64,000 nt of DNA from Candidatus Terraquivivens ruidianensis (GTDB lineage Archaea; Thermoproteota; Nitrososphaeria_A; Caldarchaeales; Wolframiiraptoraceae), in assembly GCA_023267885.1 (NCBI GenBank), contig JALNLB010000003.1:12792-76791 (forward strand), read 5' to 3'. The translations under genes were made by a program, and so were the position numbers. The number at the start of each line of letters is the position of its first letter. The stretch's first letter is position 1. Shown in pieces: positions 14,197 to 64,000 of the stretch. The notes below the pieces were generated by a model. It did not search any database. It worked only from the letters and a program-made list of their open reading frames with translations, and was not told where the DNA came from.

Positions 14197-14493
14197 ATGC
14201 GGGCAGTAGCCGTAGGTAGCAGGAGCTTCGTGCTGGGCTTCAGGCTTGCCGGCGTCAGAGGAGTTGAGGTCACCAATGCAAACGAGGCACTCTCTACAGT
14301 CAACAGGCTGATGAACGACCCAGAGATAGGGCTGATAATACTATCCGAAGAGCTGACATCCGAGATAAGAAACGAAATAAATGAGATAAGGACCAAAAAG
14401 CCTATGCCGCTCATATACGTATTACCCTCGTCCTCGACAGGCGCAAGGGATATGGACTATAGGTCTTTGCTCAGGCAAGTTTTAGGTATTTAG
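14197..14493 (+). CDS. atpF: A-type ATP synthase subunit F
   Basis: 98 aa, MRAVAVGSRSFVLGFRLAGV. Confidence 0.75.
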   Translation: MRAVAVGSRSFVLGFRLAGVRGVEVTNANEALSTVNRLMNDPEIGLIILSEELTSEIRNEINEIRTKKPMPLIYVLPSSSTGARDMDYRSLLRQVLGI

Positions 14494-14569
14494 GTGGGCA
14501 ATTTGACGAAAGGAAAAATAAATATATTGACTCAAAAAAGTGAAAACCAATTAATAGGTCGGTGAGCCC

Positions 14570-15421
14570 TTGACTTCTGTCATTTCTTTTCAGCATGCAC
14601 GAGGCGGCTCTGGCACTTCGCTCATTTCTATGATTAGCGCAAAGATCCTCTCAAGCTTTGGTAAGGTTGCTTTGCTGGAAATGGACTTCCTTAACCCTCT
14701 GCTACATCAAGTCTTTCCGCAAAAAACCTTGAAGGCACACGTTAACGACTTTATCTTTGGTGAGGCAAGCTTGGACGACGTGCTGGTAGACGTCGGACAA
14801 GAGGTTGATGCGAAGCCGAAGAATTTTTGGGTTGCTTACATGAATCCGCTTGAGGGCGCGAGGAAGAGGATGGAGTTTGCCGACGCTACACGGGATAAGC
14901 GGATAACTAAGACTTTTGAGAACGTTAGTTGGAGGGTCGAAGGCATGCCTTTAGACTTTGTTATGCTTGACATGGCACCGTGGAGTAACTACCTTAACGA
15001 CATAACATCCATAATATCGGATGTTGTATTCTTTATCATAAGGCCGAGCAGACTAGAGCTTACGTTGTTCCTCCATAGGTATGCAACGCAGCTCTCTCGT
15101 ATAATAGCGAAGGTTGTGCCCATAATCAACTTCTGCCCTTCGGATGACGAAGAATATGTCCAGATGATTATTAAGAGATTACAGGAGAATTGTCCAGAAT
15201 GTAAGAACGTTATCACCATACCGTATTACCAAGACCTTGCCTCGGGTCCAAGCAAGAAGCTAATCAAAGATTGCTCGCATCCTATATGCCGCGATTTAAG
15301 TAAAGCTATACTCAGTCCCGTCCCTAGAGAGAAGCCTTTTTTCAAAAACTCAAAAAACCATGAAACAAACGGACTAGTGGAAAGGTTGCAGGCTATCCAC
15401 TATCCTGAAAAAACTCCCTAA
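14570..15421 (+). CDS. ParA/MinD-fold (SIMIBI) P-loop protein with a degenerate Walker A motif
   Basis: It aligns to the deviant Walker A region (HARGGSGTS versus KGGxGKT), so both lysines are absent. The Walker B-like stretch FVMLDMAP is present. The track start is TTG. Confidence 0.55.
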   Translation: MTSVISFQHARGGSGTSLISMISAKILSSFGKVALLEMDFLNPLLHQVFPQKTLKAHVNDFIFGEASLDDVLVDVGQEVDAKPKNFWVAYMNPLEGARKRMEFADATRDKRITKTFENVSWRVEGMPLDFVMLDMAPWSNYLNDITSIISDVVFFIIRPSRLELTLFLHRYATQLSRIIAKVVPIINFCPSDDEEYVQMIIKRLQENCPECKNVITIPYYQDLASGPSKKLIKDCSHPICRDLSKAILSPVPREKPFFKNSKNHETNGLVERLQAIHYPEKTP

Positions 15422-15797
15422 AGTTTAGTATCCTGAGGGTCTCCGGCTCCGTTAGCTCTAGCCCATGGAGCACCCTTCCGAGCCTGTGGAGACCGTAGAA
15501 AACTTGTCTTACCGGTATGGGTTTAGGGAACTTCTCCATCGAATCAAAGTCTATCCTGAGTGTCCAACCCCTCCTTATGCACATCCTTATCTCCTCTTCC
15601 TCCATGTCCTTCAGGTGCACTACGTCCTTAATCCTTCCGTAACCCACGAATGAGTCCACGTTTTTCTTCATTATAAAGAAGACCATGCTTCCGGGCTCGA
15701 ACTTCCTCTTCAGGCCTGTGTAGTACCTCCTCTTGGAGAAGACATGCTCCTCGTTGTTTTCCCCGACAATCCTAAGGATGAAAGCGTTCGCCGTCAT
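15393..15797 (-). CDS. EVE/PUA-like domain protein
   Basis: 134 aa with an EVE-like core (GSMVFFIMKKN...FVGYGRIKDV). Confidence 0.5.
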   Translation of the reverse strand: MTANAFILRIVGENNEEHVFSKRRYYTGLKRKFEPGSMVFFIMKKNVDSFVGYGRIKDVVHLKDMEEEEIRMCIRRGWTLRIDFDSMEKFPKPIPVRQVFYGLHRLGRVLHGLELTEPETLRILNFREFFQDSG

Positions 15798-15933
15798 TTT
15801 TAATCAACGACTTTTTGTCTACTAATATTTAATGGAACTAATATACGTTCGGTAGCAAAGTGTTTTAGGTACGTTCAGAGACTTTATTCTAAGCCGTTTC
15901 CATGTGCTCGCTGAACGTAGTCTCCGGTACTGG

Positions 15934-15962
15934 TTCGCCTTTCCAGAAAATTTTTCTTATGA
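15934..15962. repeat. 29-bp direct repeat, left copy (TTCGCCTTTCCAGAAAATTTTTCTTATGA)
   Basis: A near-identical copy lies at 16531..16559. The two copies bracket the toxin-antitoxin cassette. Confidence 0.8.
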
Positions 15963-16035
15963 AGGTGGGTTCAAGCCTTAACCTTCAAAAACCTTATTAT
16001 GGAGCCTCACTAAAATGGAATTTTAGTGAAGTAAA

Positions 16036-16245
16036 GTGGTCAGAAGCTCCCTTTTAACGGACGACGACAGGGCCCTTCTCTTAAAGGTCAGCAACATGCT
16101 CGACGAGCTCTTGGAAACTCTTGGTGTCCTCGAGGATGAGGAGGTTATGAGGTCTATCGAGGAGGCCGAGGACGACGTCAAAGCTGGTAGGGTTAGAGGA
16201 TATGAGGAATTCATCGAGGAGCTGAAGAAGTCTGGAGAGATATGA
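16036..16245 (+). CDS. Type II antitoxin
   Basis: 69 aa acidic protein directly upstream of, and overlapping, a RelE/ParE toxin gene. Confidence 0.7.
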   Translation: MVRSSLLTDDDRALLLKVSNMLDELLETLGVLEDEEVMRSIEEAEDDVKAGRVRGYEEFIEELKKSGEI

Positions 16246-16297
16246 GCTTAAAGTTACCAAGTGTTTTGAAAAGGATTTCCGAAAACTTGACCCGCAG

Positions 16298-16489
16298 GTG
16301 AAAAGAAGGGTGGACTCGGCTATAAGAAGGCTTGGAGATGATCCCCGTCAAGGAAAACCCCTTAGGGGAGAGCTGTCTGGTAAATGGAGCCTAAGGGTTG
16401 GAGATTACAGGGTTATATACGTCGTAAACGAAGCAGAAAAGGCTGTCATACTCTACACAGTGAAGCATAGGAAGGTAGCGTACCGATGA
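16298..16489 (+). CDS. RelE/ParE-family toxin. The conserved N-terminus (YELKVTKCFEKDFRKLDP) is encoded upstream in frame without a canonical start, so this may be frameshifted.
   Basis: The C-terminal GDYRVIYVV...ILYTVKHRK is a RelE/ParE hallmark. The frame is open back to 16226. Confidence 0.65.
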   Translation: MKRRVDSAIRRLGDDPRQGKPLRGELSGKWSLRVGDYRVIYVVNEAEKAVILYTVKHRKVAYR

Positions 16490-16530
16490 ACGTATTCTTC
16501 GAACAAAAACGTTGTGGTTCTTGACGCTAT

Positions 16531-16559
16531 TTCGCCTTTCCAGAAAATTTTTCTTACGA
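16531..16559. repeat. 29-bp direct repeat, right copy (TTCGCCTTTCCAGAAAATTTTTCTTACGA)
   Basis: It matches 28 of 29 positions of 15934..15962. Confidence 0.8.
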
Positions 16560-16608
16560 TGACACTTTTGGAGCGCTCTCTATATATATAGCTGGTATTA
16601 GTTACGAA

Positions 16609-16632
16609 CACGGAAAAAATTTTTTTTCCGTG
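16609..16632. terminator. Perfect 24-bp palindrome CACGGAAAAAATTTTTTTTCCGTG between convergent genes, likely a bidirectional terminator
   Basis: It has a T8 tract on the + strand and a T6 tract on the - strand. It sits between the toxin 3' end at 16489 and the GT 3' end at 16687. Confidence 0.45.
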
Positions 16633-16686
16633 CAAGATGAACTAATCGTCCGAGGTGTTAAAGGAGTCTGGAGAGAACCTAACGCT

Positions 16687-19191
16687 TTAAGAGGGTAGCG
16701 CTCTGCTAAGGCTTGAAGCTCGGCTTTTTCGGTATGCTCTTCTGGCCAGAAGTAGCAGGAGTGCGAAAGGCAGGAATGCTAAAACGTTCTCGGGTATCAC
16801 GAGGTAGGTGTATTTGCCGGTATATCCCGTGTACATGGTTATAGGTACACGTACGACTCTAACACCTCCCGGTAATTCTTCTACTATAAATGACTGGTGT
16901 TGGAACCTGAGGTGTATGTAGCAGTTGGTACACGTCGGTAGGTTCACGGGCACGAAGACATCCTCCTCAAAGTCGCCATAATAAGTACCGCTGAAAGAAC
17001 CGCTTCCTATTTGTGTGCCCAAGTTGTTGGTATTGGGCGAGACATAAACCTCAACAGAACCTACCGTAGAGTCTGCCAACGAGTTCCCGGCGAAGTGGAA
17101 GACCCAAGTCCCATCGTCTGAATCTTGGAAGTTATAGGTTGACTCAGACCTCCAATAATAGTATGTAGATGAACTCAAACTTTGGGAACCGGATGGTTGG
17201 GTCGTACTCATCGTACCACTTCCTACTGTGGTGCCACCGTTGGGGTAAAGGTACAGGGTCTGATAAGGCACGTAGGCTTGAGCCTGCTGTATCGGCTGGA
17301 AGCTCACGAGAAGCATGAGCGACGTCGTCACGAATAATATGCCAGCCTTCCTCAACATGGAGGAATCTGGGCCGAACCTCGAACCGTAGAAGAGGAGCAC
17401 TCCCAAGCAAGCAGAAGCCAGGGCAGAGGCCGCATCGTAGAGCACAAGGGGCCCCATACCGAGGAGAAGCCTTAAGGGAATGTAGGAGGATACTACTGCC
17501 ACGACGCTGATGAGTAGCCTCGGCATCATGGCTCCGATTCGGATGCTTCGGCCCATCAGCCAAACGAGCGTGGCGATTCCCACGGATATGCTGGCCATCA
17601 AAATGGCGTACTCGGCCGGTTGTGGTATCCTGCTCCCTGACCCTTCGATGCTCGTCAGCAAGAGCTTAAGGAGGGCGTAGGCCAAGAAGGAGGATAGGAA
17701 CGATAGTATTGCGCAGGATACTATCCCTGACCTCTTCTTCATCGATTGCCTGCCCCTGAAGATTTTCCTGATGATGAACGCAAAGATGCCCTCGGTAATC
17801 TTTCCGGTCTTCAGCGTCCTGAACCAAGCAGACTCCTTTTTACTAAACAGCCCCTTGAGCGCAGCCATTGCCTGAAAGGTTGCCAAGACATGCATGAGCG
17901 GAATGAAGGTGAAAGCTCCCTTCCAATGCCTAGACGCCCTGTACTCTAAGTATAGACCAGTCAGGTTGACGAGTGGTATGGCCATCATGTTGGTGAGCAG
18001 TAGCGACCACCCGAAAATCGAGGTCCAGAACGGTATCTTCACCCTCAGGACTTCCGCAACCAACCATACGACCGTCCCAAGGATGAGGAACAAGCTGCTG
18101 AGGTAGTATGGGGATAGGTAGAGAAACTCCAGCTTCTCCCTCAACGATAAGAACTTGCTCCTAAGTATCTCCATGAAATAACGCTTCACAGCAAAGGTGT
18201 GGCCTTCAGCCCATCTTGCCCTCTGCCTAATCAGCGACATAAGGGTGGCGGGGCACTCGGCGGGCGCAGCTGCCAGCTGAGTGTACTTGACCTTGTAACC
18301 GTCCCGATAAAGCCTGAGCGTCAAGTCCCAGTCCTCCGTCAGGCTGTCCCTCCAGCCATACTGGCGTAGTATGTCGGCCCTTATCATGAAGACGCTACCT
18401 GATATCATACGCATACCCAGCATCAAATCGTTCACGAGCAACCTCTCAACCAAGTAGTTGCCCGCGTACTCGGCGCTCACGGCCTTCGTTATCCAGTTCT
18501 CGGAAGCGTTCAGGACGTGCCACTGGTAACCTTGAACTACAACGATCTCCCTAGAGCTGTACAGCTCGTCTAACATCTTACGTATGCCTCTGCCGTTCAG
18601 TTGACCGTTCTCGTATCCGTTACCGAATTCGTTAAGTAGCCTCTGGATTATGTCCTTTGGTGGTATGAAGTCTGCATCGAATACAACGACGTACTCCGCC
18701 TCATCGCTCATGAACTTGAGCGCCTCACGTAGCGCTCCACCTTTGAAGCCGCTCCTACTCTTCCTGTGGATTATCTTCACGCGCGGGTCTTTTTCATAGC
18801 GTCTCAATATGGTGGGCGTCGAGTCGGTCGAGTCGTCCACGACGATGACCTCGTATTTCGGGTAGTCCAAGGAAAGGAGAGCTTCCATGAGCCTCGCCGC
18901 AACCTTCTCTTCGTTGTAGAGGGGTATGTGGATACTCACCATCGGATAGTAGCCGTTACCTAAGGGGTCGGTAGTGCCGCCGTTCGTGTTGTGCCCGTTG
19001 TGCCTTAACTTTATACCGCCGTTCGTGTGGAATTTGTTGTTTCCGTTACCGTTGTTTCCATTCCTCTTGAAAAGTATGTAGGCCGTATATGCCAGCGCTA
19101 GATAGTACCTTATCGCGTACGTAAAGAAGAGTAAGCCGAATGCCAGGCTGAAGTACGGTAGTAGCTCAAGCACCTGCAACGCTATCGCCAC
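16687..19191 (-). CDS. Membrane-embedded processive family-2 glycosyltransferase (cellulose/chitin-synthase-like, QxxRW) with a C-terminal extracellular Ser/Thr-rich domain and a PEP/PGF-CTERM-like sorting signal
   Basis: DDSTD, DAD and QRARW motifs, multiple TM segments, and a C-terminal IPENVLAFLPFALLLLLARRAYRKSR tail. Confidence 0.8.
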   Translation of the reverse strand: MAIALQVLELLPYFSLAFGLLFFTYAIRYYLALAYTAYILFKRNGNNGNGNNKFHTNGGIKLRHNGHNTNGGTTDPLGNGYYPMVSIHIPLYNEEKVAARLMEALLSLDYPKYEVIVVDDSTDSTPTILRRYEKDPRVKIIHRKSRSGFKGGALREALKFMSDEAEYVVVFDADFIPPKDIIQRLLNEFGNGYENGQLNGRGIRKMLDELYSSREIVVVQGYQWHVLNASENWITKAVSAEYAGNYLVERLLVNDLMLGMRMISGSVFMIRADILRQYGWRDSLTEDWDLTLRLYRDGYKVKYTQLAAAPAECPATLMSLIRQRARWAEGHTFAVKRYFMEILRSKFLSLREKLEFLYLSPYYLSSLFLILGTVVWLVAEVLRVKIPFWTSIFGWSLLLTNMMAIPLVNLTGLYLEYRASRHWKGAFTFIPLMHVLATFQAMAALKGLFSKKESAWFRTLKTGKITEGIFAFIIRKIFRGRQSMKKRSGIVSCAILSFLSSFLAYALLKLLLTSIEGSGSRIPQPAEYAILMASISVGIATLVWLMGRSIRIGAMMPRLLISVVAVVSSYIPLRLLLGMGPLVLYDAASALASACLGVLLFYGSRFGPDSSMLRKAGILFVTTSLMLLVSFQPIQQAQAYVPYQTLYLYPNGGTTVGSGTMSTTQPSGSQSLSSSTYYYWRSESTYNFQDSDDGTWVFHFAGNSLADSTVGSVEVYVSPNTNNLGTQIGSGSFSGTYYGDFEEDVFVPVNLPTCTNCYIHLRFQHQSFIVEELPGGVRVVRVPITMYTGYTGKYTYLVIPENVLAFLPFALLLLLARRAYRKSRASSLSRALPS

Positions 19192-19726
19192 CAGTGCGCG
19201 TGCTGATGAACCAGAAGAGCATGAGCCAGCCGAACGTGACGAAGCTACCGAAATAGTCGTGGAATATTATGGCCGGACCTTTTCCAACGTATACGGCTAT
19301 GAGAGCTACGAGGGCTATCCTAAGTATGTTTACTAGGATTGTTCCCTGAAGGCCTACCAAGGTCGTCGTGAGCTTTCCGAGAAGGGATGAGGACGATTCC
19401 TTAAGGACGAGGTAGGATATGGCCGAGAATATCACGATGCTCTGCCAGCCTATGCAGTTCCAAGCTATGTACAGGGCAATTGCTCCGCCCGGCGCATTTA
19501 GGTAAACGATGGGGCCCGACAGCGTAGCCTCGAGCCCGAAAAGGGCCAGCATGGATGCCGTGAAGCGTGCCACGAGCGGAGCGATGTACGTCTCTATAAA
19601 CCACCATAGGCCGATCGACTTTATAATCTCCGTGAGAAACTCGTTAAAGGTGATGTAAAAAGGCATGATTATAAGGGTAAACGACGCGGCTATGAGAAGT
19701 ACGGCGTAGCCCCTTTCTTCCCTCAA
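19166..19726 (-). CDS. Exosortase/archaeosortase-family protein (small, 186 aa)
   Basis: Polytopic membrane protein with a Cys (WNCIGWQS) and an Arg (NILRIAL) about 47 residues apart, as in the exosortase core. It overlaps the GT gene start by 26 nt. Confidence 0.55.
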   Translation of the reverse strand: MREERGYAVLLIAASFTLIIMPFYITFNEFLTEIIKSIGLWWFIETYIAPLVARFTASMLALFGLEATLSGPIVYLNAPGGAIALYIAWNCIGWQSIVIFSAISYLVLKESSSSLLGKLTTTLVGLQGTILVNILRIALVALIAVYVGKGPAIIFHDYFGSFVTFGWLMLFWFISTRTGGDSVAGA

Positions 19727-19866
19727 CGCCGTTTAGCTCCGTGTTTTTAATACTTAAAAATAAATTTTTCCCTTATATAGTTATGTTAGGAAAAGCATCG
19801 GCCCTTATCACGTCTGACGTAGCAATTTATATATTCCGAAACAAGGCAACTAATGCCTGAAAGTGT

Positions 19867-20469
19867 ATGTCGGATGCTTTGGATAAAGTTCTCAAAAAGG
19901 TCGCTGAGGAGACCATGATGGAGTGCTTTTCTTTGTTGGACTCTGCCGAGAAGGATGCCATGGTGCTTTTGGATAGTGAAATGCGTGAGGCCAGCAGCGA
20001 GGCTGTGGAAATAATCGAATCGGCCAAGAGGCAGGCCGAGCTGGAGAGGTCTAGGATACTTAGCGTAGCAGAGGTTGAGGCTAGGAATGAGATGCTCATA
20101 CTCGTCGAGGAATACGTCAACATGGTCATAGAGCGTGCCATGGAAAAGCTGAGGCATACTCCAACCATGCCGGATTACAGGGATGCGATGAAAAAGCTAC
20201 TCCTCGAGGGCCTGAACGCTGTAGGAAGCGACGTAAAGGTATGGACGAATGCAAGGAGCATAGGCCTGCTGAGGGAGCTGGCCGAAGAGGTCTCTACGAG
20301 CACGGGCTTTAAGGTATATGTGGACGATGAAGCAATAGACTGCATAGCTGGCTTAAAGGTTAGCAGCTTGGACGGAAAGAGGGTCTTCGACAACACAGTC
20401 GAGGGAAGGCTGAGGCGCCTAAGGCCGGTCCTTAGAAGGGAAGTTGCCAAGCTGCTGGCCATCGAATAA
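19867..20469 (+). CDS. atpE: A-type ATP synthase subunit E
   Basis: 200 aa, directly upstream of atpA. Confidence 0.8.
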   Translation: MSDALDKVLKKVAEETMMECFSLLDSAEKDAMVLLDSEMREASSEAVEIIESAKRQAELERSRILSVAEVEARNEMLILVEEYVNMVIERAMEKLRHTPTMPDYRDAMKKLLLEGLNAVGSDVKVWTNARSIGLLRELAEEVSTSTGFKVYVDDEAIDCIAGLKVSSLDGKRVFDNTVEGRLRRLRPVLRREVAKLLAIE

Positions 20470-20511
20470 GATATTAATACGAATGGATGCGGCTAAGTGG
20501 GTGGACGTTTT

Positions 20512-22296
20512 ATGGGTATCGAAGGCAAGATAATATGGGTTGCAGGACCAGCGGTAAAGGCAGATGGTATGCTCGGCGCGAAAATGTACGAGACCGTTTA
20601 CGTCGGCGAGGAGAGGCTCATAGGCGAGATAATAAGGTTGACAGGAGACGTCGCCTTCGTACAGGTTTACGAGAACACTAGCGGGCTCTCGCCAGGAGAG
20701 CCTGTTTATGGTACTGGACAACCGCTCTCGGTCATGCTTGGCCCTGGAATAATAGGAAGCATCTACGACGGAGTTCAGAGACCCTTGGATAGGATTGCGT
20801 CTGCCATCGGGCCATTCGTGAAGAGAGGGGTCCAAGCCCCTCCGCTACCGTTCGAGAAGAGGTGGAGGTTTAAGCCTCTCGTAAAGAAAGGAGATGTGCT
20901 CAGCCCAGGAGACTTTGTAGGCGTGGTCCAAGAGACGCCTTTAGTTGAGTGCAGGATAATGGTGCCACCCGACAGCAAGGGCGGAGAGGTGGTTCACATA
21001 GCGGAAGAGGGAGACTACACGGTCGAGGATACTGTTGCAGTACTCTCTAAAAGTGGAGTAAACGAGGAGATAAAGCTGTACCATCGCTGGCCTGTCAGGA
21101 CGCCGAGACCCTTCAAGAGGAGGCTTAGTCCGGAGGTACCGCTCATCACTGGCCAAAGGGTCATAGACACATTCTTCCCGATGGCAAAGGGAGGAACCGG
21201 ATGCATACCCGGAGCATTCGGGACAGGCAAGACTGTCATGCTACACAACCTCGCCAAATGGAGCGACGCCAAAGTGATATTCCACGTGGGCTGCGGCGAG
21301 AGAGGGAACGAGGAGGCAGAAGTCCTGACGAAGTTCCCGGAGCTTACAGACCCTTACAGCGGAAGACCTCTCATGGAAAGGACGGCGCTGATAGCCAACA
21401 CGAGCAACATGCCCGTGGCCGCGAGGGAAGCTAGCATATACACCGGGGTCACCATGGCCGAGTTCTACAGGGACATGGGATACGACGTGCTCTTGGTTGC
21501 GGATTCGACGAGCAGATGGGCTGAGGCGCTGAGGGAGATAAGCGGTAGGCTCGAGGAGATGCCTGCAGAGGAGGGCTATCCAAGTTACCTCGCCAGTAGG
21601 CTTGCCGAGTTCTACGAAAGGGCTGGAAGGGTTGAGACGTTCGGAAGACCAGAAAGAATCGGGAGCGTCACGCTGATAGGCGCCGTCAGCCCGCCTGGCG
21701 GTGACTTCACGGAGCCGGTGACTACGCACACGATGCGCTTCATAAGGACCTTCTGGGGCCTCGACCCAAACTTGGCGTACAGCAGACACTATCCAGCCAT
21801 CAACTGGATAACGAGCTACTCGGGATACGTCGAAACCGTCAAGGTATACTGGGAGTCCCAGGTAAGCAAGGAGTGGTCTGAGCTCAGGTCCTACGTTTAC
21901 TCCATACTACAAAGGGAGGAGGAGCTCTTAGAGATAGTGAGGCTCCTTGGACCAGAGGCCCTGCCCGACGAGGAGAAGCTTTTGCTGGACGTAGCCAGGA
22001 TGGTAAGGGAGGGCTTCCTGCAGCAGAGCGCTTACGACGAAATGGATGCCTACTGCGACGTGAGAAAGCAGGTCAAGCTACTCGGGCTTTTCGCAGAGTT
22101 CCACAAACTGGCGGTAGATGCTCTCAAGCGGGGTGTGCCCTTGAAGAGCATAAGGGGTATGCCGATAATATTCAGGCTCATCAGGGCTAAGTCTGAGGTC
22201 AGGAACGATGAGGTCGAGAAACTCGACGCGTTGCTCGAGACGATGAGGTCTGCGTTCGAGAAGCTCATGGCTGAGGAGGTCGTGGCGGTGAGATGA
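20512..22296 (+). CDS. atpA: A-type ATP synthase catalytic subunit A
   Basis: GAFGTGKT P-loop. The start is the ATG at 20512 ([13 protein letters not shown]). No intein is present. Confidence 0.95.
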
Positions 22297-23708
22297 GCTT
22301 GAGCAAGGACAAGAGGTCAACGCCAGCTGGCCTGACGTACGGAACGATCAGCGAAATAAAAGGCCCACTCATGATAATAGAAGGCGTGACGAAGGCATCT
22401 TACGATGAGCTCGTGGAGATAGAGACGAGGGAAGGCGAGAGACGCCTGGCAAGGGTTCTTGAGGTCGGAATGGGCAAAGCAGTTGTACAAGTCTTCGAGG
22501 GGACGCATGGTCTATCAATAGAGGGCACGGTCGCGAGGTTCTTGGGCAGGGTCATGGAGCTTGGCGTATCGGAGGATATGCTCGGCAGGACCTTCGATGG
22601 ACTCGGAAGACCGCTCGACGGGTTACCGGAGCCGATACCGAGGGAGTTCAGGGACGTGAACGGTGAGCCAATTAACCCCGAGAGACGCGATTATCCGAGC
22701 GACTTCATACAGACAGGCATGTCAGCAATAGATGGAATGAACTCGCTTGTCAGAGGCCAGAAGCTACCGATATTCTCCGGCGCTGGCTTGCCGCACAACA
22801 TGCTGGCCGCGCAGATAGCTAGGCAGGCGACGGTTCCCGGCAAGGAAGAGGAATTTGCGGTTGTGTTCGCAGCCATAGGCGTCCAGAACGATGAGGCGAG
22901 GTTCTTCAAGGAGAGTCTCGAGAAGAGCGGAGCGATATCTAGGAGCGCCCTCTTCCTAAACTTGGCGGACGACCCGGCAATAGAGAGAATCATAACGCCG
23001 AGGATAGCGCTGACGCTTGCCGAGTATCTTGCTTTCTGGCACGACTACCACGTACTCGTAATCTTGACGGATATTACCAACTACTGCGAAAGCCTGCGGG
23101 AGATAAGCGCCGCGAGGGAAGAGGTTCCAGGAAGGAAGGGATATCCAGGATACATGTACACGGATCTTGCCTCGAACTACGAGAGGGCCGGAAGGATAAA
23201 AGGCAAGAAGGGCAGCGTGACGCAGATGCCCATACTGAGCATGCCGAGCGACGACATCACGCACCCAATACCAGACCTAACGGGCTACATCACGGAAGGC
23301 CAGATAGTTCTGAGCAGGGAGCTCTACAGGAAGGGAATATACCCGCCGATAAACGTGCTAATGTCTCTGAGTAGACTGATGGGACCCGGAATCATCGCCG
23401 AGAAAAGGACGAGGGCTGACCACGGTGACGTGAGCAACCAGCTTTATGCAGCCTACTCAAGGGCTGTTCAGTTAAGAGCCTTGGCTGAGATAGTGGGAAG
23501 GTCTGGTTTATCTGCAACCGACATAAAGTATCTGGAGTTCGGTGACCTATTCGAGCAAAGGTTCTTAAAGCAGGGCTATGACGAGAACAGGTCTTTGGAT
23601 GACACGTTGGAAATAGCTTGGGATATACTCTCGAGCCTGCCGGAGCAGGAGCTGACGAAGATAAAGGAAGAGCATATCCACAAATACTACAAAGCAAAGA
23701 GCAGATGA
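22293..23708 (+). CDS. atpB: A-type ATP synthase subunit B
   Basis: 471 aa regulatory subunit, overlapping atpA (ATGA). Confidence 0.95.
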
Positions 23709-48665: not shown

Positions 48666-48703
48666 AGCAGGTACAAGCATTCGGTCGCAAAATTGCGAGC
48701 GTG

Positions 48704-51700
48704 ATGAGAAAAATGGATAGACGTGCGAAGATAACCGCGCTGGCGCTTTTGGTAGTGATGGTTGCGGCAGTTATACTTCCTGCCGCGATCGTTCAGGTTA
48801 CAACAGCGCAGGCATACCATGAGGCATGGTTCAAGATAGTCACTTCTGCATGGAAAGGAACCCATAGATGGGAGTTCACAGGTTTTCCAGGTACGGGCTC
48901 TTTGGGCACTACAGGCTATTGGGATGAATATTATCCGCCAGTCTTCCCGATAGCAGACCAGTGGGGTATAATACCTGCAAGGTACAACCTAACGAAGATA
49001 GGTTCTGACGGTATCCCGACGTTGGAGCCGAACGTCGAGGTCGCAGTTTACTACCCGACAGGTCTTGAACCAAACCCCGTTGCATATTCTACGTTCACGC
49101 CGAACGGTACTGGCTTCGTAAAGGTTACATGGCCTAAAGACTGGCAAAACGTCACTATAGCAGTAAAGGCAAAGAGCTGGTACGGAGAGCCGATAAGGAC
49201 ATCTTCCAACAGGCTATACGAAGGAATTATACTGTTTATGATTAAGATAAATGCTACTAGGTACGAGTACGTTCGCAACGGCATAACTTCTGGTACTCTG
49301 TGGAGACCTAACGCGACCTTCATGTACAACGGTAGAGTAGGCATTCATCCATTCCTAGGAATGTTTGACTTTAGATACAGCGGGCCGGTTGTGTTCTGGT
49401 CGAAGGTAAGAGCCGACTCGGCCATTACCGACCTAGGTCCGGGTGCGTTCGCAGCATTCCACGCCAACGCTTCATACGCATTCCTTGCCAACTGCTCAAT
49501 TCTGTGGAAGAAGTTCCACACGCACACTTGGTATGGCATAAGGGACAACCTAAGCTATGCCCAGGTAAGGGTATACGACCTGAACTACACTGCCAACTCC
49601 CTTGGAGGAGTATCGGCACTGAGCGAGGCAACGCTGGTCGGAGCTGGAGTAACGAAGGCTCTCTACAGAGGTGATTCAAAGCTCAGGGATGCGGCTGACG
49701 GTCAGACTCCTTGGATACCCATACCCACCCAGACATTCCACCTGGGACTGAGGCTACCGTTCGCCCTCAGACATCCAACTGGAGATTTTGGCTTCGGCAA
49801 CGCCAGCTTCCCAGCAGGCCAGGCTAACACTGGCCCCCATCTGAACGCTACCGTCAGAGTTTGGTGGGAGACCGTCCTAGTAAACCAGACGAGGTACAGC
49901 TTCTGGGACAACCATACCATTTCTGAGAATCCAGACAGCATTATGGACACTTACGTAGACGCACCAGGTCCTCTAAACTTCACGCGTGGCGGATGGTTCA
50001 AGACACAAGATTACCATGGTATAGCGCCAAACCATAACAGCTCGTTAAACCACCTGAACTGTACGGTGTTCTACGCCAAGTTCCAGGCGAACGATACTGA
50101 CACGAGGGCAAAACACAGGACCTTCGGCGACGCTCTGGTCGATGCTCAAGTGCTAATAGTGTTGACGAAGCAGAAGGCAGGCGATGCAGGGCCAGTAGTT
50201 TACTTTGATAAGGATGAGATTGGTCTGACGAATGCTTCCAACACAGCGCTCCCAGGCCGTCATCCAGGCTATACAGACACCGTAAAGGGCTCCTCCATGG
50301 TGGGAGCTGAGGCCAACTTTACTGCTTTAGGTTACATGAGGTTCCCGAACTCATCGGTATTCTACTATGGAGGATACAAGATTGGAACTACACAGAAGGA
50401 TGTTAACCACCCATGGGTACTATACGACTACCCAGTAGTCTTCCACCCGGAGGATGCTGTGAACAGAGCAGAGGCTCTGGAGAGGCCGTGCACGAAGATA
50501 GTAAACATCAAGGAGCTGAACACGATAAGCCTTGACGATGACAAAGACAAGTGGGGCACTTTCAAGGGCATATTGGTACAAGTTAAGTGGAAGGGAGGTC
50601 CTGCTGGCGTATACGGAGGAGAATTCGTAACTGTAAACTCGACGCATATAACTAACCCATACGCCATAGCCCTCCGCAACGCATCATGGATTGTGCCTAC
50701 GAACCCAATACTGGTCAGGGCGACCCACGATGCTCTCAGCAGGTTTGATACGCCCGCCATCATGAGAGACCAGTACGGTATCAGAGGCCCGGTCTTCCCC
50801 AGACTCAGCAGGGGTGTTCTCACGCTTGGCGGCATATACCTTCTCAACTGTACTGTTTACGACCTTATGCTCCAGATAGTCGACAAGATGCTATCACCGC
50901 TCGAGCCTGCTGACACGAAGGTAGTCCTATACAGGCCGAACGGTCCTCCGGTAGAGTTCCAGGGCCTGCCTACAGAGCATACTGTACTGCTATCCGATGG
51001 AACACCAGTCTACAACGTCGTATTCTATGACTGGATATCGGCTAACGGAACGTTGTTGCTATTCCAGCTACCAGGCGATACGGGCGCTTATGGCATCAGG
51101 GTCTACTACCAAGGCGTTCTCGTCTACGATGAGCTGTTCCTGATACCCAAGCTGATAAAGACAGAGAACCTTACATTGGTAACGAACGTCTATAAGGTTC
51201 TGATAAAGGTGACGGATGCGCACGACGAGGGCTTGGCTTACACACCCGTATGGTACATACACCCAACTTACGGAGAAGTATTGGTCAACACTGCAGATGA
51301 CGGTAAGATAGATTTAGGAAAGACACCAATACCTGTCGGCGGTGGGGTAACGCTACCCACGCTGAAGTTCACTGGTGTTTACTGGAAGGGAGTTAAGGTA
51401 AAGTTCCTTGTGAAGGATGCGGTAAAGTATCCAGACGGCACGACGGCTGACTCAGAGCCTGACGGTTCCGTGTTCGTAGATACATCTAAGAGCGCATACA
51501 CGCCGATAATCGTTAGGGCAAGGATAACTGACCTAATATTCTACACATGGGACTTCCAGAAGGTTGAGAAGATAAACAATGTCAACATAACGATGTCTTG
51601 GTGGGGATACAACATAACGACTGGCAAGATTATAAAGTTCATAGAGACGATGGACCCAGGCGAAAGTAAGGACGTCGACCCGACAAAGCCAAGGCCGCCT

Positions 51701-54700
51701 ATCGGCGTACCGTGGGATTTGGCATTTGACCTGCAGAATTACAACACCTCAAGGATAGTCGCCCAGTTCTTCAGATACAAGATTACTTACTACATGGGCG
51801 AGGCCAAGGTGGTATTCCACCAGATGCCTGCTCTTGATGAGGAGGTCAACAGGCCTTGCATAAACGTAACGACGTCTACTATGACATGGAGATGGACCGG
51901 CTCGAACCATGAGAGGAAGCATTTCTCTGAGCTAATAGGTTGGGCCGGAGGCGCGGGTACATTCGCCGGAAACGCAACGCCTGGCTCTAACCTGTGGGAC
52001 AGTGTTACGACAGCTGAAGATGAGGCACATGGAAGGGTCGTGCTAAGGGTTATACCCAAGGCATTCAACCCTGACGTTTACTACGAAGACATAATCAAGG
52101 CTCTGAAGTTCGAGGAGCTTACGTTCTGCCAGAGGATAGCCATCGACCTTCCGCTCTGGGCTATGGGCTTCGACGTCGTTGCGATAAACGGTGAGAGATG
52201 GCTTGGCGGCGCAGAGTTCACGATAGTCAACGACGTAAACAGGACGATGATAACGCTAGTGACGAAGAGCGATGCGCCGATAACGCTAAGGTCGATAGTG
52301 AACAAGACGAACCCATTACTATCTAGGATATGGTGGAACAGCTCATCCCACTGGACGACTTACAACTTAGGCCCAAGCGGTAGGGCTAGGATACACGTAC
52401 CCGTCGCAGGCCAGGCGATGGTCGGCGCGATTGGAAGGGGATACAGGACAGAGTCCCTGACCTTCAAGACCGACATGGGTGTTACAGTGAGGAACTTCAC
52501 TTGGTACAGGTACGGCGGCGTATGGGCCGCTAACATAGGTCCGTGGCCAGACCGGGTCTCTGCTAACTACACGTTCTACGTGACGCCGAACGTAGCGCTG
52601 AAGGATGCATGGGCCACGAAGAAGACGATGGTTAGGGTCTGGGTCTGGAGCTTTGCAGAAGGCACGATGCCAGCAAAATACGACATTCCGTACATCTACG
52701 ATAAGCAGCTACTCAGGGTTCCGCTGCCCGTTGGCTTCATAACGCTGGAGCTGACTGACCAGGGTGGCGCTAGACCACTCAAGTACGCTTTTGTAAACAT
52801 AACAGCCCACATCAACGCTACTGTAGATGATGTGTGGCCGAGGTTCGTCGTCTACCCAGGGCCTGACGGAAAGGCACAGTGGGCAGGAAAGGTCGATTCT
52901 GAAGGAAAGGCAGAGATAATCGCACCGACTGCAGGATACCTGAACTACACGAGCAAGAAGTTTGGATATGAAGGTGATCCAGTAAGGTTCAAGACCTTCA
53001 ACATAACGGTATACTGGTACCTGAACAGCAGCGTCGTCTACGAGGCTTACTTCAACCTGACGAAGATGGGATGGAAGGTAGACAAGGTAGCGGTTGCAGA
53101 CGTCGTTCTGCACCACACGATATGCTCAGACCTTAACAGGGTAGTCAAGGGACTATACGCAGACGTGGCATGGAGGAACGTGACGGCGCCTGCCAATTTC
53201 GTGCACCCAGGCATACTGACTGCCGACGACGAGAAGTGGACGTGGACGCTGACGGAGATAGACGAGACGAAGGGGAAGGCAGCATGGACAACTGGAACAG
53301 TCGAGCTTAACCTAGTACCGACGGCTATGAAGTTCAAGGTCTACGACTGGTTCCTACAGAGGGAAGTCACGTGGAACGTAAGCCATCTATGGAGGGTCGC
53401 AGCGTGGTACACCGACCTGAAGAAAGGACCCGTACAGTTCGAAGGCGAGAGCTACAAGCAGCTGATGTTCGGTAGCGGCACTGATAAGTCACCAGTCAAC
53501 TCTGCTGTCTACATAATAATAGGCGCAGCACCATTCGACCACACGACGTACAGATGGACGAGAGCGAGCACTGATGTGCTAAGCGGCTGGTGGCCGGCAA
53601 CTACTGGTAGTGATGCGGACGGAAGTGGAGCACGATTTGTTGGTAAGATAGGCAGGTATCATCCTGTTACTTCGATAGGACTCATCGATTACTACGGTAC
53701 CGTCAAGACCAAAGAGGTCGTCGAGGCAACAAGGACAGTCAAGCTAGTGGCGCTTAAGCTGAACGCAACAGACTTGGCAGTAAAGGTAGCATGGCAGAGA
53801 GGAGAGAACGAGACGGCCACTTACATAACTGGTCCGCTGGTAGGCTGGAAGGTAAAGCTGACCTACGTACCGCCATACGAGTACCTATCTGATGCTGAAA
53901 GGGATGCTCTATGGACTGCATGGAGGAGGACGCTGGAGGTAACGACAGATGACGAGGGATTTGCATGGTTCAGGAGTGGTGACACACCGGAGACGGTCAT
54001 ATGGAACGCAAGCAGGATAAAGGCAGGAATGACCAGGGAGGCATCATGGCTTGTCGTCAGCCCGCCTGCTTACATGCTGAACGAGAAGGACCCGTACTGG
54101 CGTGACAACGTCGTAAAGCCTGGCGCTGAGGCACACGGCCTTAGCGTCTTCGAGGGAACGCAGGACCCAGCTGCCATGGTCGGCGTAGACCTTACACCGG
54201 AGGGATACTTCTCATGGCTGCCAGACCCATCGCTATGGGTAAGTGATGAGTGGTTTAGCACTATCTACTCCTTGTATGGCTATCCAGGTATGTGGACTTT
54301 CTATAACGAGTGGGGTGCAGGACTATGGTTGCCTTCACTCTTTGGCGAGGGATACAGTGGAAGCTCCGGATGGGCAAGGATAGCAGGCGCATGGTACGCA
54401 AGGATAAACGTATGGCCTAACAACCCAGCGACATCCCAGCACGTGCCTTACACGCCAGTGTTCCAGTACATGGAAGTAACGGCACAGATAAGGGACTTCA
54501 ACGGAAGGCCGCTGCCAGGCGCATTCTTCTGGATGATAGACTCGGTAACTGGCAAGACGGCAGGCTGGTCCTATGCTGGTAAGGACGGCCTCACTGAAAA
54601 AGTATACCTGAGGAAGCCTGAGTTCACCCTGCTGCTCAGAGTCCACTACCTAGGCAGGGATGCTGAAGGCCATCCAGCATGGCCGTTCAACGCCTTCGGA

Positions 54701-56086
54701 AAGTGGCCGGCTAGCTACTACAGCGATGCAGACGAGACAGAGCCAGGACCTGGAATATTCGGAGAGCTAGCAAAGAGGGTAAAGGTAACGACATTAGCCC
54801 ACGAGTATCATGGTGTTTGGAGGGTCAGGCCAGGCGTCCACTGGGATATAACGGCGAGGATATTCGACATAAGGGTAAGGCATTACTACGAGACTGCTAA
54901 GCCGATAGAGGTTGATGCAACGTTCTACAGGGAGTTCCCAGATAAGCTAGGTGGAACGGTTGAGTTCAAGGCTAAGGAGATCATAGAGGTCAAGAGGCTG
55001 AACAGGGGAACCTACGAGGAGATAGCCAAGTGGCTCGGAGTTGCAGTAGGAAGGAAGAGCTTCGACCTTAGCGCTGCCAACGTAGGAACGGTCGCCGCCG
55101 AGCTTGAGTGTGCCGTCGGTGACATAAGCGTGACCGCCAAGGACATAACTGGAAGGGTGCTGAGTGACGCCATCGCAAAGTTCGAGGGCGTCGAGCAGAA
55201 GCTGACGATACCGCCGGAGATACTTGAGAAGTACGGTATTGCGAGCGAGGAGGATGCTAAGACGTTGAAGGCAGTAGGCGCAGTGTTCGTGACGAGGTTG
55301 CCGATACCGACGAACATAAGGTACAGCCTAGACCTCTCATGGACCTCGCCTGACTTCGGAACGGATGCAAAGGTCTCAGTGGTCGACACGGTCAGCGGAC
55401 TTAACGCCAGGAGGGAGATAACGCTGCCTGTTGGCGTCGTTACGATCAACGTCGTGGACGGCAAGGGAAGGGCCATAGCAGGAGCCGAGGTGTCGCTAGG
55501 ACCAGTAAAGGCTAAGACAGATGCAGCAGGAAAGGCGGTGTTCGAGAGCGTACCGCTCGAGAGGGAAGGCAGGGGCATAGCCTACCAGATAACCGTCACA
55601 CGCGAGGGTGAGGTGGTCTACAGGGAGACCGAGACCTTCTCGGTAGCTAAGACCTCGATAACGGTCATAGGAGAGCTGTATGACCTTAGTGTGCTGGTGA
55701 AGGGTGCCGCAGGCCAAGGCCTGCCGTTCGCAACGGTAACGTTGAAGAGGGCAGGCGTGGTGGTGGGACACTTCACGACCGACGAGGGAGGTGCAGTGAC
55801 GATACCGAAGCTAGTGGCCGCAGACTACGAGGTAGAGGTTGCGTACAAGGGATACACAGGGACGGCCACCATCTCGAAGGCAGACCTGACGGCTGGCAAG
55901 AGGGCTGAGGTAACGCTGCCGCCATACGTAGAGATAGCCGGCATGCCTCTGACGTTCGCCACGTTCCTAGCCTTGATAATCGGCATAGTCCTGCTGGTCA
56001 TAGTAGTAGTCGTCATAGCATTCGAGTACGTGCGCTGGCGCGGTAGAAGGGTGGGAATATTCCCGCCTCCGCCACCAAAGAAGTAG
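48704..56086 (+). CDS. Giant (2460 aa) secreted, sequon-rich surface protein with a C-terminal TM anchor. It is a candidate S-layer or stalk glycoprotein.
   Basis: Signal peptide, more than 40 N-x-S/T sequons, two C-terminal CarboxypepD_reg/Cna-B-like beta-sandwich repeats, a TM helix and a RRVGIFPPPPPKK tail. Confidence 0.7.
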   Translation: MRKMDRRAKITALALLVVMVAAVILPAAIVQVTTAQAYHEAWFKIVTSAWKGTHRWEFTGFPGTGSLGTTGYWDEYYPPVFPIADQWGIIPARYNLTKIGSDGIPTLEPNVEVAVYYPTGLEPNPVAYSTFTPNGTGFVKVTWPKDWQNVTIAVKAKSWYGEPIRTSSNRLYEGIILFMIKINATRYEYVRNGITSGTLWRPNATFMYNGRVGIHPFLGMFDFRYSGPVVFWSKVRADSAITDLGPGAFAAFHANASYAFLANCSILWKKFHTHTWYGIRDNLSYAQVRVYDLNYTANSLGGVSALSEATLVGAGVTKALYRGDSKLRDAADGQTPWIPIPTQTFHLGLRLPFALRHPTGDFGFGNASFPAGQANTGPHLNATVRVWWETVLVNQTRYSFWDNHTISENPDSIMDTYVDAPGPLNFTRGGWFKTQDYHGIAPNHNSSLNHLNCTVFYAKFQANDTDTRAKHRTFGDALVDAQVLIVLTKQKAGDAGPVVYFDKDEIGLTNASNTALPGRHPGYTDTVKGSSMVGAEANFTALGYMRFPNSSVFYYGGYKIGTTQKDVNHPWVLYDYPVVFHPEDAVNRAEALERPCTKIVNIKELNTISLDDDKDKWGTFKGILVQVKWKGGPAGVYGGEFVTVNSTHITNPYAIALRNASWIVPTNPILVRATHDALSRFDTPAIMRDQYGIRGPVFPRLSRGVLTLGGIYLLNCTVYDLMLQIVDKMLSPLEPADTKVVLYRPNGPPVEFQGLPTEHTVLLSDGTPVYNVVFYDWISANGTLLLFQLPGDTGAYGIRVYYQGVLVYDELFLIPKLIKTENLTLVTNVYKVLIKVTDAHDEGLAYTPVWYIHPTYGEVLVNTADDGKIDLGKTPIPVGGGVTLPTLKFTGVYWKGVKVKFLVKDAVKYPDGTTADSEPDGSVFVDTSKSAYTPIIVRARITDLIFYTWDFQKVEKINNVNITMSWWGYNITTGKIIKFIETMDPGESKDVDPTKPRPPIGVPWDLAFDLQNYNTSRIVAQFFRYKITYYMGEAKVVFHQMPALDEEVNRPCINVTTSTMTWRWTGSNHERKHFSELIGWAGGAGTFAGNATPGSNLWDSVTTAEDEAHGRVVLRVIPKAFNPDVYYEDIIKALKFEELTFCQRIAIDLPLWAMGFDVVAINGERWLGGAEFTIVNDVNRTMITLVTKSDAPITLRSIVNKTNPLLSRIWWNSSSHWTTYNLGPSGRARIHVPVAGQAMVGAIGRGYRTESLTFKTDMGVTVRNFTWYRYGGVWAANIGPWPDRVSANYTFYVTPNVALKDAWATKKTMVRVWVWSFAEGTMPAKYDIPYIYDKQLLRVPLPVGFITLELTDQGGARPLKYAFVNITAHINATVDDVWPRFVVYPGPDGKAQWAGKVDSEGKAEIIAPTAGYLNYTSKKFGYEGDPVRFKTFNITVYWYLNSSVVYEAYFNLTKMGWKVDKVAVADVVLHHTICSDLNRVVKGLYADVAWRNVTAPANFVHPGILTADDEKWTWTLTEIDETKGKAAWTTGTVELNLVPTAMKFKVYDWFLQREVTWNVSHLWRVAAWYTDLKKGPVQFEGESYKQLMFGSGTDKSPVNSAVYIIIGAAPFDHTTYRWTRASTDVLSGWWPATTGSDADGSGARFVGKIGRYHPVTSIGLIDYYGTVKTKEVVEATRTVKLVALKLNATDLAVKVAWQRGENETATYITGPLVGWKVKLTYVPPYEYLSDAERDALWTAWRRTLEVTTDDEGFAWFRSGDTPETVIWNASRIKAGMTREASWLVVSPPAYMLNEKDPYWRDNVVKPGAEAHGLSVFEGTQDPAAMVGVDLTPEGYFSWLPDPSLWVSDEWFSTIYSLYGYPGMWTFYNEWGAGLWLPSLFGEGYSGSSGWARIAGAWYARINVWPNNPATSQHVPYTPVFQYMEVTAQIRDFNGRPLPGAFFWMIDSVTGKTAGWSYAGKDGLTEKVYLRKPEFTLLLRVHYLGRDAEGHPAWPFNAFGKWPASYYSDADETEPGPGIFGELAKRVKVTTLAHEYHGVWRVRPGVHWDITARIFDIRVRHYYETAKPIEVDATFYREFPDKLGGTVEFKAKEIIEVKRLNRGTYEEIAKWLGVAVGRKSFDLSAANVGTVAAELECAVGDISVTAKDITGRVLSDAIAKFEGVEQKLTIPPEILEKYGIASEEDAKTLKAVGAVFVTRLPIPTNIRYSLDLSWTSPDFGTDAKVSVVDTVSGLNARREITLPVGVVTINVVDGKGRAIAGAEVSLGPVKAKTDAAGKAVFESVPLEREGRGIAYQITVTREGEVVYRETETFSVAKTSITVIGELYDLSVLVKGAAGQGLPFATVTLKRAGVVVGHFTTDEGGAVTIPKLVAADYEVEVAYKGYTGTATISKADLTAGKRAEVTLPPYVEIAGMPLTFATFLALIIGIVLLVIVVVVIAFEYVRWRGRRVGIFPPPPPKK

Positions 56087-63080: not shown

Positions 63081-64000
63081 ATGTCTGAATACGTCGTAAT
63101 AGACCCATCAGAACGAACATTTACGGGTTCGCGCATAAACTTAAGTGCTCCTCCAAGGGTTTCGTTTGTTATTCCAACGCTGAATAATGAGAAGACTATA
63201 GGTGCATGCCTTGAGAGCATCAGACATCAAGATTATCCTGAAATTGAAGTGATAGTCGTGGATGGATATTCTAAAGATAAAACGGTCGAGATAGCGAATA
63301 GGTATGCGGATATAGTGCTCTTTGATAAAGGGACATACGGTAGCGCATGCAAGCTGGGCTTTGAGAATGCAACAGGAGAGATAGTGGGCATGTTCGATGC
63401 AGACATTATATTTCCACATCCAAATTGGCTAAGGAACGCCGTAAAGTACTTTAACTATAACGATAGGGTTAGCACCGTTGAACCCTTTAATATAGTTCCT
63501 AAGAATGCATCCATATTCGCAAAAGCGTACTCGGCATTATCTCTTGAACTGATTTTAGAAAGGATAAGGACGGGACGAGGTGTACTTGGAGGAGGAAACT
63601 GTCTTTTATGGAAGGATGCCGTGGTAAAGTCTGGAGGAATAGACGGGAGACTCCACTGGGGTGCCGACTTTACTTGGGCAAAAAACCTGAAGGAAAGTGG
63701 GTACATGGTAGTTTATACATCCGACCCTGTCTATCACATAACTATGAGCACGCTCAGAGAGTTCTTACGGAAACAGATTTATGGGGCCAGAACGTTTACT
63801 GGCTTAGGGTTTGACTTAATGGGCTTAAATAAATCAGAGCTCTTACGACAGCATATGGTGGTAGGAATGAGAGGCCTCAAAAAGATGTTCCTTAATAGAG
63901 AACGAGAATGGATAGTATATCCCCTACTTTTAGGTGCCAGGGTGCTCTCATACGGCACGATATCATTAAGAAACATTTTCATAAAGCAAAGTGAAAAGAA
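63081..64000 (+). CDS. GT2 glycosyltransferase, truncated by the window edge
   Basis: I translated VSFVIPTLNNEKTIGACLESIRHQDYPEIEVIVVDGYSKDKT...DADI. The frame stays open to the end of the window. Confidence 0.75.
   Translation, partial: MSEYVVIDPSERTFTGSRINLSAPPRVSFVIPTLNNEKTIGACLESIRHQDYPEIEVIVVDGYSKDKTVEIANRYADIVLFDKGTYGSACKLGFENATGEIVGMFDADIIFPHPNWLRNAVKYFNYNDRVSTVEPFNIVPKNASIFAKAYSALSLELILERIRTGRGVLGGGNCLLWKDAVVKSGGIDGRLHWGADFTWAKNLKESGYMVVYTSDPVYHITMSTLREFLRKQIYGARTFTGLGFDLMGLNKSELLRQHMVVGMRGLKKMFLNREREWIVYPLLLGARVLSYGTISLRNIFIKQSEK

Follow-up and report, generated by a model that had tools for sequence, protein, structure and literature searches.

A variable slot between atpF and atpE in Candidatus Terraquivivens ruidianensis: a probably old accessory gene cluster with a nested toxin-antitoxin cassette

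Lineage-variable genomic islets are the closest described counterpart of an interval that we analyzed in Candidatus Terraquivivens ruidianensis, where six unrelated genes separate atpF from atpE-atpA-atpB within a 64,000-nucleotide stretch (hereafter the window; NCBI GenBank assembly GCA_023267885.1, contig JALNLB010000003.1, positions 12,792 to 76,791 of the forward strand). The interval shares with such islets its conserved flanks (CDC48, FEN1 and atpF; atpE-A-B and ECF-S), a content that varies between close relatives, a nested toxin-antitoxin insertion and pseudogenes that are decaying in some lineages. It differs from them in that the slot carries no integrase, tRNA or att signature, in its native composition and in a core that appears to be as old as the genus-level clade. 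The cargo recalls other described systems as well: the pairs in which a small exosortase-family gene overlaps a multi-pass GT2 gene (XrtG with the TIGR03111 glycosyltransferase, and the XrtP-associated GT2, NF053846); the type II RelE/ParE toxin-antitoxin cassettes; and BcsQ of bacterial cellulose synthase, a ParA/MinD-fold protein whose gene is linked to a BcsA/PgaC-like GT2.

We consider it probable that the interval is an old, vertically inherited and differentially lost accessory cluster in a variable slot, with a toxin-antitoxin cassette nested in it later. The slot would be a permissive spacer between two separately promoted A-type ATPase units, atpF alone and atpE-A-B. The core would comprise a ParA/MinD-like protein without the P-loop lysine, a convergently encoded protein of 134 amino acids (p134) and an archaeosortase-GT2 operon on the opposite strand. 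It would date back to the last ancestor that the sampled lineages share, a polarity that we infer, and would later have been kept, pruned, replaced or deleted depending on the lineage; the RelE/antitoxin cassette would have entered the p134/GT2 spacer afterward, in the lineage of the window. The original prediction, which correctly placed accessory-looking genes between atpF and atpE-A-B on one strand (six genes lie there), had called the interval an insertion hotspot inside a conserved operon. The hotspot stands insofar as the site is variable, with at least five states, and the cassette is a true insertion; the part that does not stand is the insertion of the whole 5.3-kb block into a conserved operon.

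The interval was compared across about ten related lineages. In a genome scan, the closest AtpE proteins were those of Candidatus Terraquivivens tengchongensis (78% identity) and T. tikiterensis (72%), so that the nearest genomes belong to Candidatus Terraquivivens (Caldarchaeales/Aigarchaeota) and not to the Thermoproteales, which had been proposed as the kin group. Terraquivivens is a genus of the Wolframiiraptoraceae, order Caldarchaeales (Aigarchaeota) (PMC9246946). Among these lineages, the interval was found in five or more different states. In T. tengchongensis (loci L001 and L004) and T. tikiterensis (L002), it consists only of a spacer, of 130 bp and 118 bp, respectively, and the flanks of T. 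tengchongensis are otherwise those of the window (CDC48, a small open reading frame [ORF], FEN1 and atpF, then atpE-A-B and ECF-S). Genome GCA_033581195.1 (L011) has atpF, the ParA-like gene, p133, GT2, archaeosortase and atpE in this order, without the toxin-antitoxin cassette. The same four core genes were found at this site in ERZ6864471 (two contigs, L009/L010 and L012), here with three unrelated ORFs at the p134|GT2 junction, and in JGI 3300005800 (L020 and L021, 90% identical at the nucleotide level where the contigs overlap), again with no cassette and with a frameshifted GT2 gene in L021. Other lineages hold less of the core or something else: a p134 homologue only (L013/L014; 137 amino acids, 75% identical); an archaeosortase homologue split over two reading frames and abutting atpE (L015); an intact gene for a 457-amino-acid M20/ArgE-type peptidase adjoining atpE (L008, 200 to 1573); 660 to 700 bp of M20 peptidase gene fragments (L005, 363 to 1023; L006, 1966 to 2662); and a truncated M20 peptidase gene upstream of atpE on a short contig that ends before atpF (L007, 1 to 653).

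Next to this variation in content, the cargo proteins show a degree of divergence like that of AtpF and AtpE from the respective genomes. Identity to the window was 55 to 73% for the same-site ParA-like orthologues, 73 to 76% for p134, 70 to 78% for GT2 and 80 to 82% for the archaeosortase, compared with 72 to 83% for AtpF and 72 to 78% for AtpE. Neighbor-joining trees of the flanks (AtpE+A+B+ECF-S and FEN1+AtpF, 200 bootstraps) contained two splits with 96 to 100% bootstrap support, one setting the window and T. tikiterensis against the rest and the other grouping L008/L006 with L013. The carriers (the window, L011 and L009/L012) fell on both sides of the strongest split and are not monophyletic, so ancestral presence followed by differential loss is favored. 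The intermediate states fit the same history: some loci retain p134 by itself, others have broken reading frames in the archaeosortase or GT2 gene, and the M20 peptidase gene is seen at several stages of decay, intact in L008 and reduced to fragments in L005, L006 and L007. The simplest reading of these comparisons places the four-gene core in the shared ancestor of the sampled lineages, with several later episodes of loss, pruning or replacement. An accessory-looking block that splits housekeeping genes thus need not be recent; the present one would be older than the species, and its variation would be mostly loss. As genome dynamics go, the slot itself is of an ordinary kind, and its cargo is of moderate interest.

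Several points weigh against this interpretation. The searches with AtpE (genomes, metagenomes and protein database) reached only sequences of at least 72% identity and no outgroup genus; the tree is therefore unrooted, and its inner branches have 36 to 82% support. The absence of cargo in T. tengchongensis and T. tikiterensis refers to the atpF-atpE site only; most carriers are metagenome-assembled genomes or metagenome contigs, some of them split across contigs; and the functions assigned to the cargo are inferred from family similarity alone. With no root and the outgroup out of reach, repeated gain has to be weighed: the block would have been absent from the ancestor and would have spread by homologous recombination through the FEN1/atpF and atpE/atpA flanks, being gained repeatedly at the same site. 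We consider such a history unlikely. It would account for the patchy presence among near-equidistant lineages and could draw on highly conserved flanks (CDC48, 94 to 95%; AtpB, 94 to 97%). A hint of allele exchange also comes from the near-identical contig JAWCLY010000001.1 of GCA_038850335.1 (L003), which is 99.85% identical to the window: flanks of about 18 kb are identical, and all 36 differences lie in the block (16145 to 18571). However, the cargo of the carriers is as deeply diverged as fast-evolving core genes, so that any transfers would be ancient; the partial states are more simply read as decay; and the composition of the block is native.

Native composition also argues against the block being young. 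The GC content, GC content at third codon positions (GC3) and synonymous-codon score of every block gene lay within 2 standard deviations of 40 reference genes of the window, so the compositional check suggested with the original prediction gave a uniform result. Together with the finding of the ParA-like, p134, GT2 and archaeosortase genes at the same site in L011, L009/L010 plus L012, L020 and L021, this means that the two observations named in advance as speaking against a block insertion are, for the core block, largely what was found. That the entire 5.3-kb block is a recent, horizontally acquired insertion in the lineage of the window, either a mobile element or its remnant, is accordingly a reading to which we give very little credence. 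It has in its favor the absence of the block at the site in T. tengchongensis and T. tikiterensis, the cassette with its direct repeats, a sliding-window GC that falls to 0.43 to 0.47 at 14.2 to 17 kb and a 10-bp sequence, AAAAATAAAT, at both block ends (14513 and 19757). The dips in GC, however, come from four spacers with a GC of 0.36 to 0.39 and a slightly AT-richer ParA-like gene (z = -1.2), and the 10-mer was rejected as a target-site duplication: it is unconserved at the block ends of L011, L009 and L012 and resembles promoter A/T boxes, and no terminal duplication conserved among carriers was found. Moreover, orthologous blocks occur in at least four other lineages at 55 to 82% identity. 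Scans of the six block proteins against Pfam, NCBIfam and PHROGs returned no integrase, transposase or recombinase; the repeat and RelE had no viral matches in IMG/VR; and no tRNA lies near the block, the nearest being at 42.6 and 47.1 kb in the window. A recent insertion is contradicted for the four-gene core and holds only for the toxin-antitoxin cassette.

The sequence upstream of atpE bears on why such a slot may be tolerated. A TTTATATA box and about 75 bp next to atpE, within the divergent spacer (19727 to 19866) between the archaeosortase gene and atpE, were conserved in nine of nine aligned lineages. This conservation is independent of whether the neighbor is atpF, p134, the archaeosortase or the peptidase gene, and it includes L001 and L002, in which atpF is adjacent. 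The atpE-A-B genes therefore appear to have their own promoter even with atpF next to them, and the slot would lie between separate transcription units, where cargo breaks no operon. These comparisons document a permissive slot in the ATPase gene clusters of Caldarchaeales, one that an independent atpE promoter would explain. On the other side, the A/T-rich spacer between atpF and the ParA-like gene (14494 to 14569, + strand, GC 0.36) holds a TATA-like box, with similar A/T boxes in L011 and L009. A scan for sigma-70 promoters and intrinsic terminators gave counts at or below the shuffle expectation and is uninformative for an archaeon. A functional position, with the ParA-like protein and/or p134 acting on the A-ATPase (assembly, localization or regulation) or divergent promoters co-regulating envelope synthesis and energy supply, is very improbable: p134 alone is retained between atpF and atpE in L013/L014, and a common 140-bp divergent spacer lies between the archaeosortase gene and atpE in all carriers, but two species have no cargo at the site, outside the genus the archaeosortase-GT2 pair and the ParA-like gene are separate from the atp genes, and the atpE promoter does not change when the block is missing.

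The toxin-antitoxin cassette has a different history from the one proposed for the core around it. The RelE/ParE cassette with 29-nucleotide (nt) direct repeats had been anticipated, and both parts were confirmed. The toxin passes PF05016 (38.1 bits, cut-off 23) and TIGR02385 (29.6 bits, cut-off 27.9) and aligns over its full length to phrog_1213 (E value = 5e-21). The antitoxin gene (16036 to 16245, + strand, 69 amino acids) overlaps the toxin gene, an arrangement found in type II toxin-antitoxin pairs. The small overlapping upstream gene, the family models passed and the size and setting of the unit (about 0.6 kb in an intergenic spacer) are all as in type II RelE/ParE cassettes; unlike these, the antitoxin has no known family (no match in Pfam or NCBIfam), no canonical toxin start precedes residue 23 and 29-nt repeats flank the pair. 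Two starts come into consideration for the toxin gene (+ strand). CTG at 16232, the choice of the GCA_038850335.1 record, gives 85 amino acids (16232 to 16489); the first canonical start, GTG at 16298, gives 63 (16298 to 16489). Homology to full-length RelE extends from codon 16232 onward, with no ATG, GTG or TTG in this frame before 16298, and the ATGA overlap with the antitoxin stop (ATG at 16242) falls in another frame than RelE. Possible reasons for this oddity are a start codon of an unusual type, a frameshift in the toxin gene or an error in sequencing.

The direct repeats bracket the pair on the + strand (copy 1, 15934 to 15962, including the palindrome AGAAAAtTTTTCT; copy 2, 16531 to 16559) and are identical at 28 of 29 positions; exactly two copies of their 26-nt core are present in the window, whereas shuffles gave an expectation of zero. 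A coding remnant under the repeats was considered and dropped, as the three-frame translations yielded stops only. Further along, between the convergent RelE and GT2 genes, a hairpin with a perfect 10-bp stem (16609 to 16632) corresponds to the terminator-like palindrome reported from the middle of the block. The free energy of the 56-nt stretch is -14.5 kcal/mol (z = -3.8), and the T-run of the hairpin differs by 1 nt in length between the window and L003.

Among the compared loci, the cassette and its repeats are present only in the window and the near-identical L003. The cassette is absent from four other block-carrying lineages, and the p134|GT2 junction of other carriers measures 112 to 270 bp or holds different genes. 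From this distribution, the cassette is a lineage-specific insertion and the one truly recent event in the slot that the comparison dates, and the inner p134/GT2 spacer is the currently active insertion point. No mobile-element source of the cassette was found in a search of IMG/VR, and a viral origin was rejected, the repeat and RelE both being absent from that database. The ORFs of ERZ6864471 at the cassette-equivalent junction encode 239, 171, 73 and 72 amino acids and have no Pfam match (L012, 12576 to 14404; L010, 3755 to 3970). The contig ends of L010 and L012 do not overlap, and that both contigs end at the p134|GT2 junction suggests a repeated or mobile element there. In the window, 26 nt immediately downstream of the GT2 stop codon (16651 to 16676) match the 3' end of the antitoxin gene (16215 to 16240) at 85% identity, a resemblance that could be left over from a second cassette or could have arisen by chance (rough P value of about 0.03).

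The GT2-synthase/archaeosortase module of the original prediction was likewise recovered. The short archaeosortase/exosortase-family protein (186 amino acids, 19166 to 19726, - strand) matches PF09721 (49 bits) and passes the exosortase/archaeosortase family model TIGR04178 (47.1 bits, cut-off 23), and its motifs WNCIGWQ, NILRIA and FHDYFG are conserved in L016 and L017. It passes none of the named subtype models (ArtA to ArtF, thaumarchaeosortase, XrtG, XrtX and others), scoring 16 to 31 bits against cut-offs of 55 to 425. The 3' end of its gene overlaps the start of the GT2 gene, so the two form one operon. The GT2 product is a processive-synthase-like membrane glycosyltransferase (834 amino acids, 16687 to 19191, - strand; PF00535, PF13641 and PF13632) with an extracytoplasmic-type C-terminal domain, and in a model scan it showed partial similarity to PgaC, CelA and the XrtP- and XrtG-associated GT2. 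The overlapping gene pair, the partial model matches and the fused GT2-exosortase proteins among the homologues of the window's GT2 are shared with the XrtG/XrtP systems; the failure to pass any subtype model and the archaeal host (Caldarchaeales) set the pair of the window apart from them.

The C terminus of GT2 carries a tripartite signal (16690 to 16797, - strand) composed of an IPEN motif, a hydrophobic helix and an Arg/Lys cluster, the tail reading ...VIPENVLAFLPFALLLLLARRAYRKSR. An [IVM]PE[NYGT] motif followed by a helix and a basic tail is present in most unfused GT2 homologues, and many of the other homologues are GT2-exosortase fusions; because of these two observations, the synthase may be the sortase's own substrate, recognized through the C-terminal signal, with cleavage a prediction only. 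The pair would be a surface-polysaccharide module whose synthase is cleaved or anchored by the adjacent sortase. The same pair turns up in other Caldarchaeales at sites apart from the atp genes. In L017 (4247 to 9905) and L016 (1 to 4133), the pair comes with a large multi-pass membrane protein that gave no Pfam match; this protein has 666 amino acids in L017 and is a 372-amino-acid fragment in L016. Elsewhere in the window (63153 to 63416), a second GT2-domain match is 37% identical to the GT2 of the block over about 100 amino acids.

Of the 36 differences that separate the window from L003, about 25 fall in a hypervariable patch of the GT2 C-terminal domain (17034 to 17128, - strand). They alter a loop that reads GNSLADS-TVGSVEV in one and GVSNKKGFMTGYVDV in the other, and a third allele (P0001) is mixed. 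The pattern suggests either a recombination patch or a diversifying surface loop.

The remaining two core genes are convergent and overlap by 29 nt. The ParA/MinD-like protein (283 amino acids, 14570 to 15421, + strand) has a weak AAA_31 match, and its profile matches structures of the ParA/MinD/Mrp/Soj/ParF group (3vx3, E value = 1e-7; PF-32, Soj, MinD and ParF). Its Walker A motif reads RGGSGTS, compared with KGGxGK[ST] in the family, and Thr aligns to the lysine of GK[ST]. Both the fold and the pseudo-ATPase character given in the original prediction are borne out at this level. With the lysine missing, ATP hydrolysis by this protein is unlikely. Only four clusters of close homologues were found, and the homologues have RGG(S/A)GTS or KGGSGTT at this position. 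A homologue in L017 passes AAA_31 (37 bits, cut-off 27), has the same degenerate P-loop (HSKGGSGTT) and lies 2.4 kb from the archaeosortase-GT2 pair.

The conserved small protein p134 (15393 to 15797, - strand) had been labeled EVE/PUA-like, and this label could not be confirmed. Scans of Pfam, NCBIfam and PHROG gave no match; its family comprises 62 clusters, and EVE (PF01878) matches were sub-threshold and occurred in only 4 of 44 family members (best E value = 0.004). Searches of the PDB with the single sequence and with a profile produced chance matches only. Neither for p134 (AlphaFold model from a single sequence, pLDDT 40.6) nor for the ParA-like protein (AlphaFold model from a five-sequence alignment, pLDDT 38.1) was the predicted structure good enough for a fold search. 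In distant contigs (L018, 1029 to 1644; L019, 587 to 1163), a p134 homologue of 46% identity overlaps the C terminus of the ParA-like protein tail to tail, and the two look like an obligate pair beyond the genus. The linkage of a ParA/MinD-fold gene to a BcsA/PgaC-like GT2 recalls BcsQ, as does a faint BcsQ match in L017 (E value = 0.009). The likeness stops there: the ParA-like protein does not pass the BcsQ model, lacks the Walker A lysine and appears to have p134, rather than a BcsR-like peptide, as its obligate partner.

Taken as a whole, the core could tentatively be seen as an undescribed archaeal surface-polymer machine, an idea that we hold with low confidence. GT2 would be the single dedicated substrate of a mini-archaeosortase by way of its IPEN-type C-terminal signal, the catalytically dead ParA/MinD-like protein and an EVE-like p134 would position or gate GT2, and the long head-to-head residence beside atpE might tie the making of the envelope to energy status. 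As by-products of the comparison, the conserved ParA-like/p134 pair and the archaeosortase-GT2 pair with a sorting signal on the synthase provide leads for archaeal envelope biology.

At the left border of the slot, atpF (14197 to 14493, + strand), for A/V-ATPase subunit F, matches PF01990 with 68 bits. The right border begins with atpE (19867 to 20469, + strand; PF01991, 70 bits), followed on the same strand as atpF by atpA (20497 to 22296) and atpB (22293 to 23708), after which comes the ECF S-component gene. The ATPase genes are dispersed in the Terraquivivens group. In the window, atpC (PF01992, 5588 to 6637) lies 8 kb upstream of atpF with unrelated genes between them, and atpD, atpI and atpK do not adjoin atpB. 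Farther downstream, the + strand of the window contains a very long ORF of 2461 amino acids (48701 to 56086).

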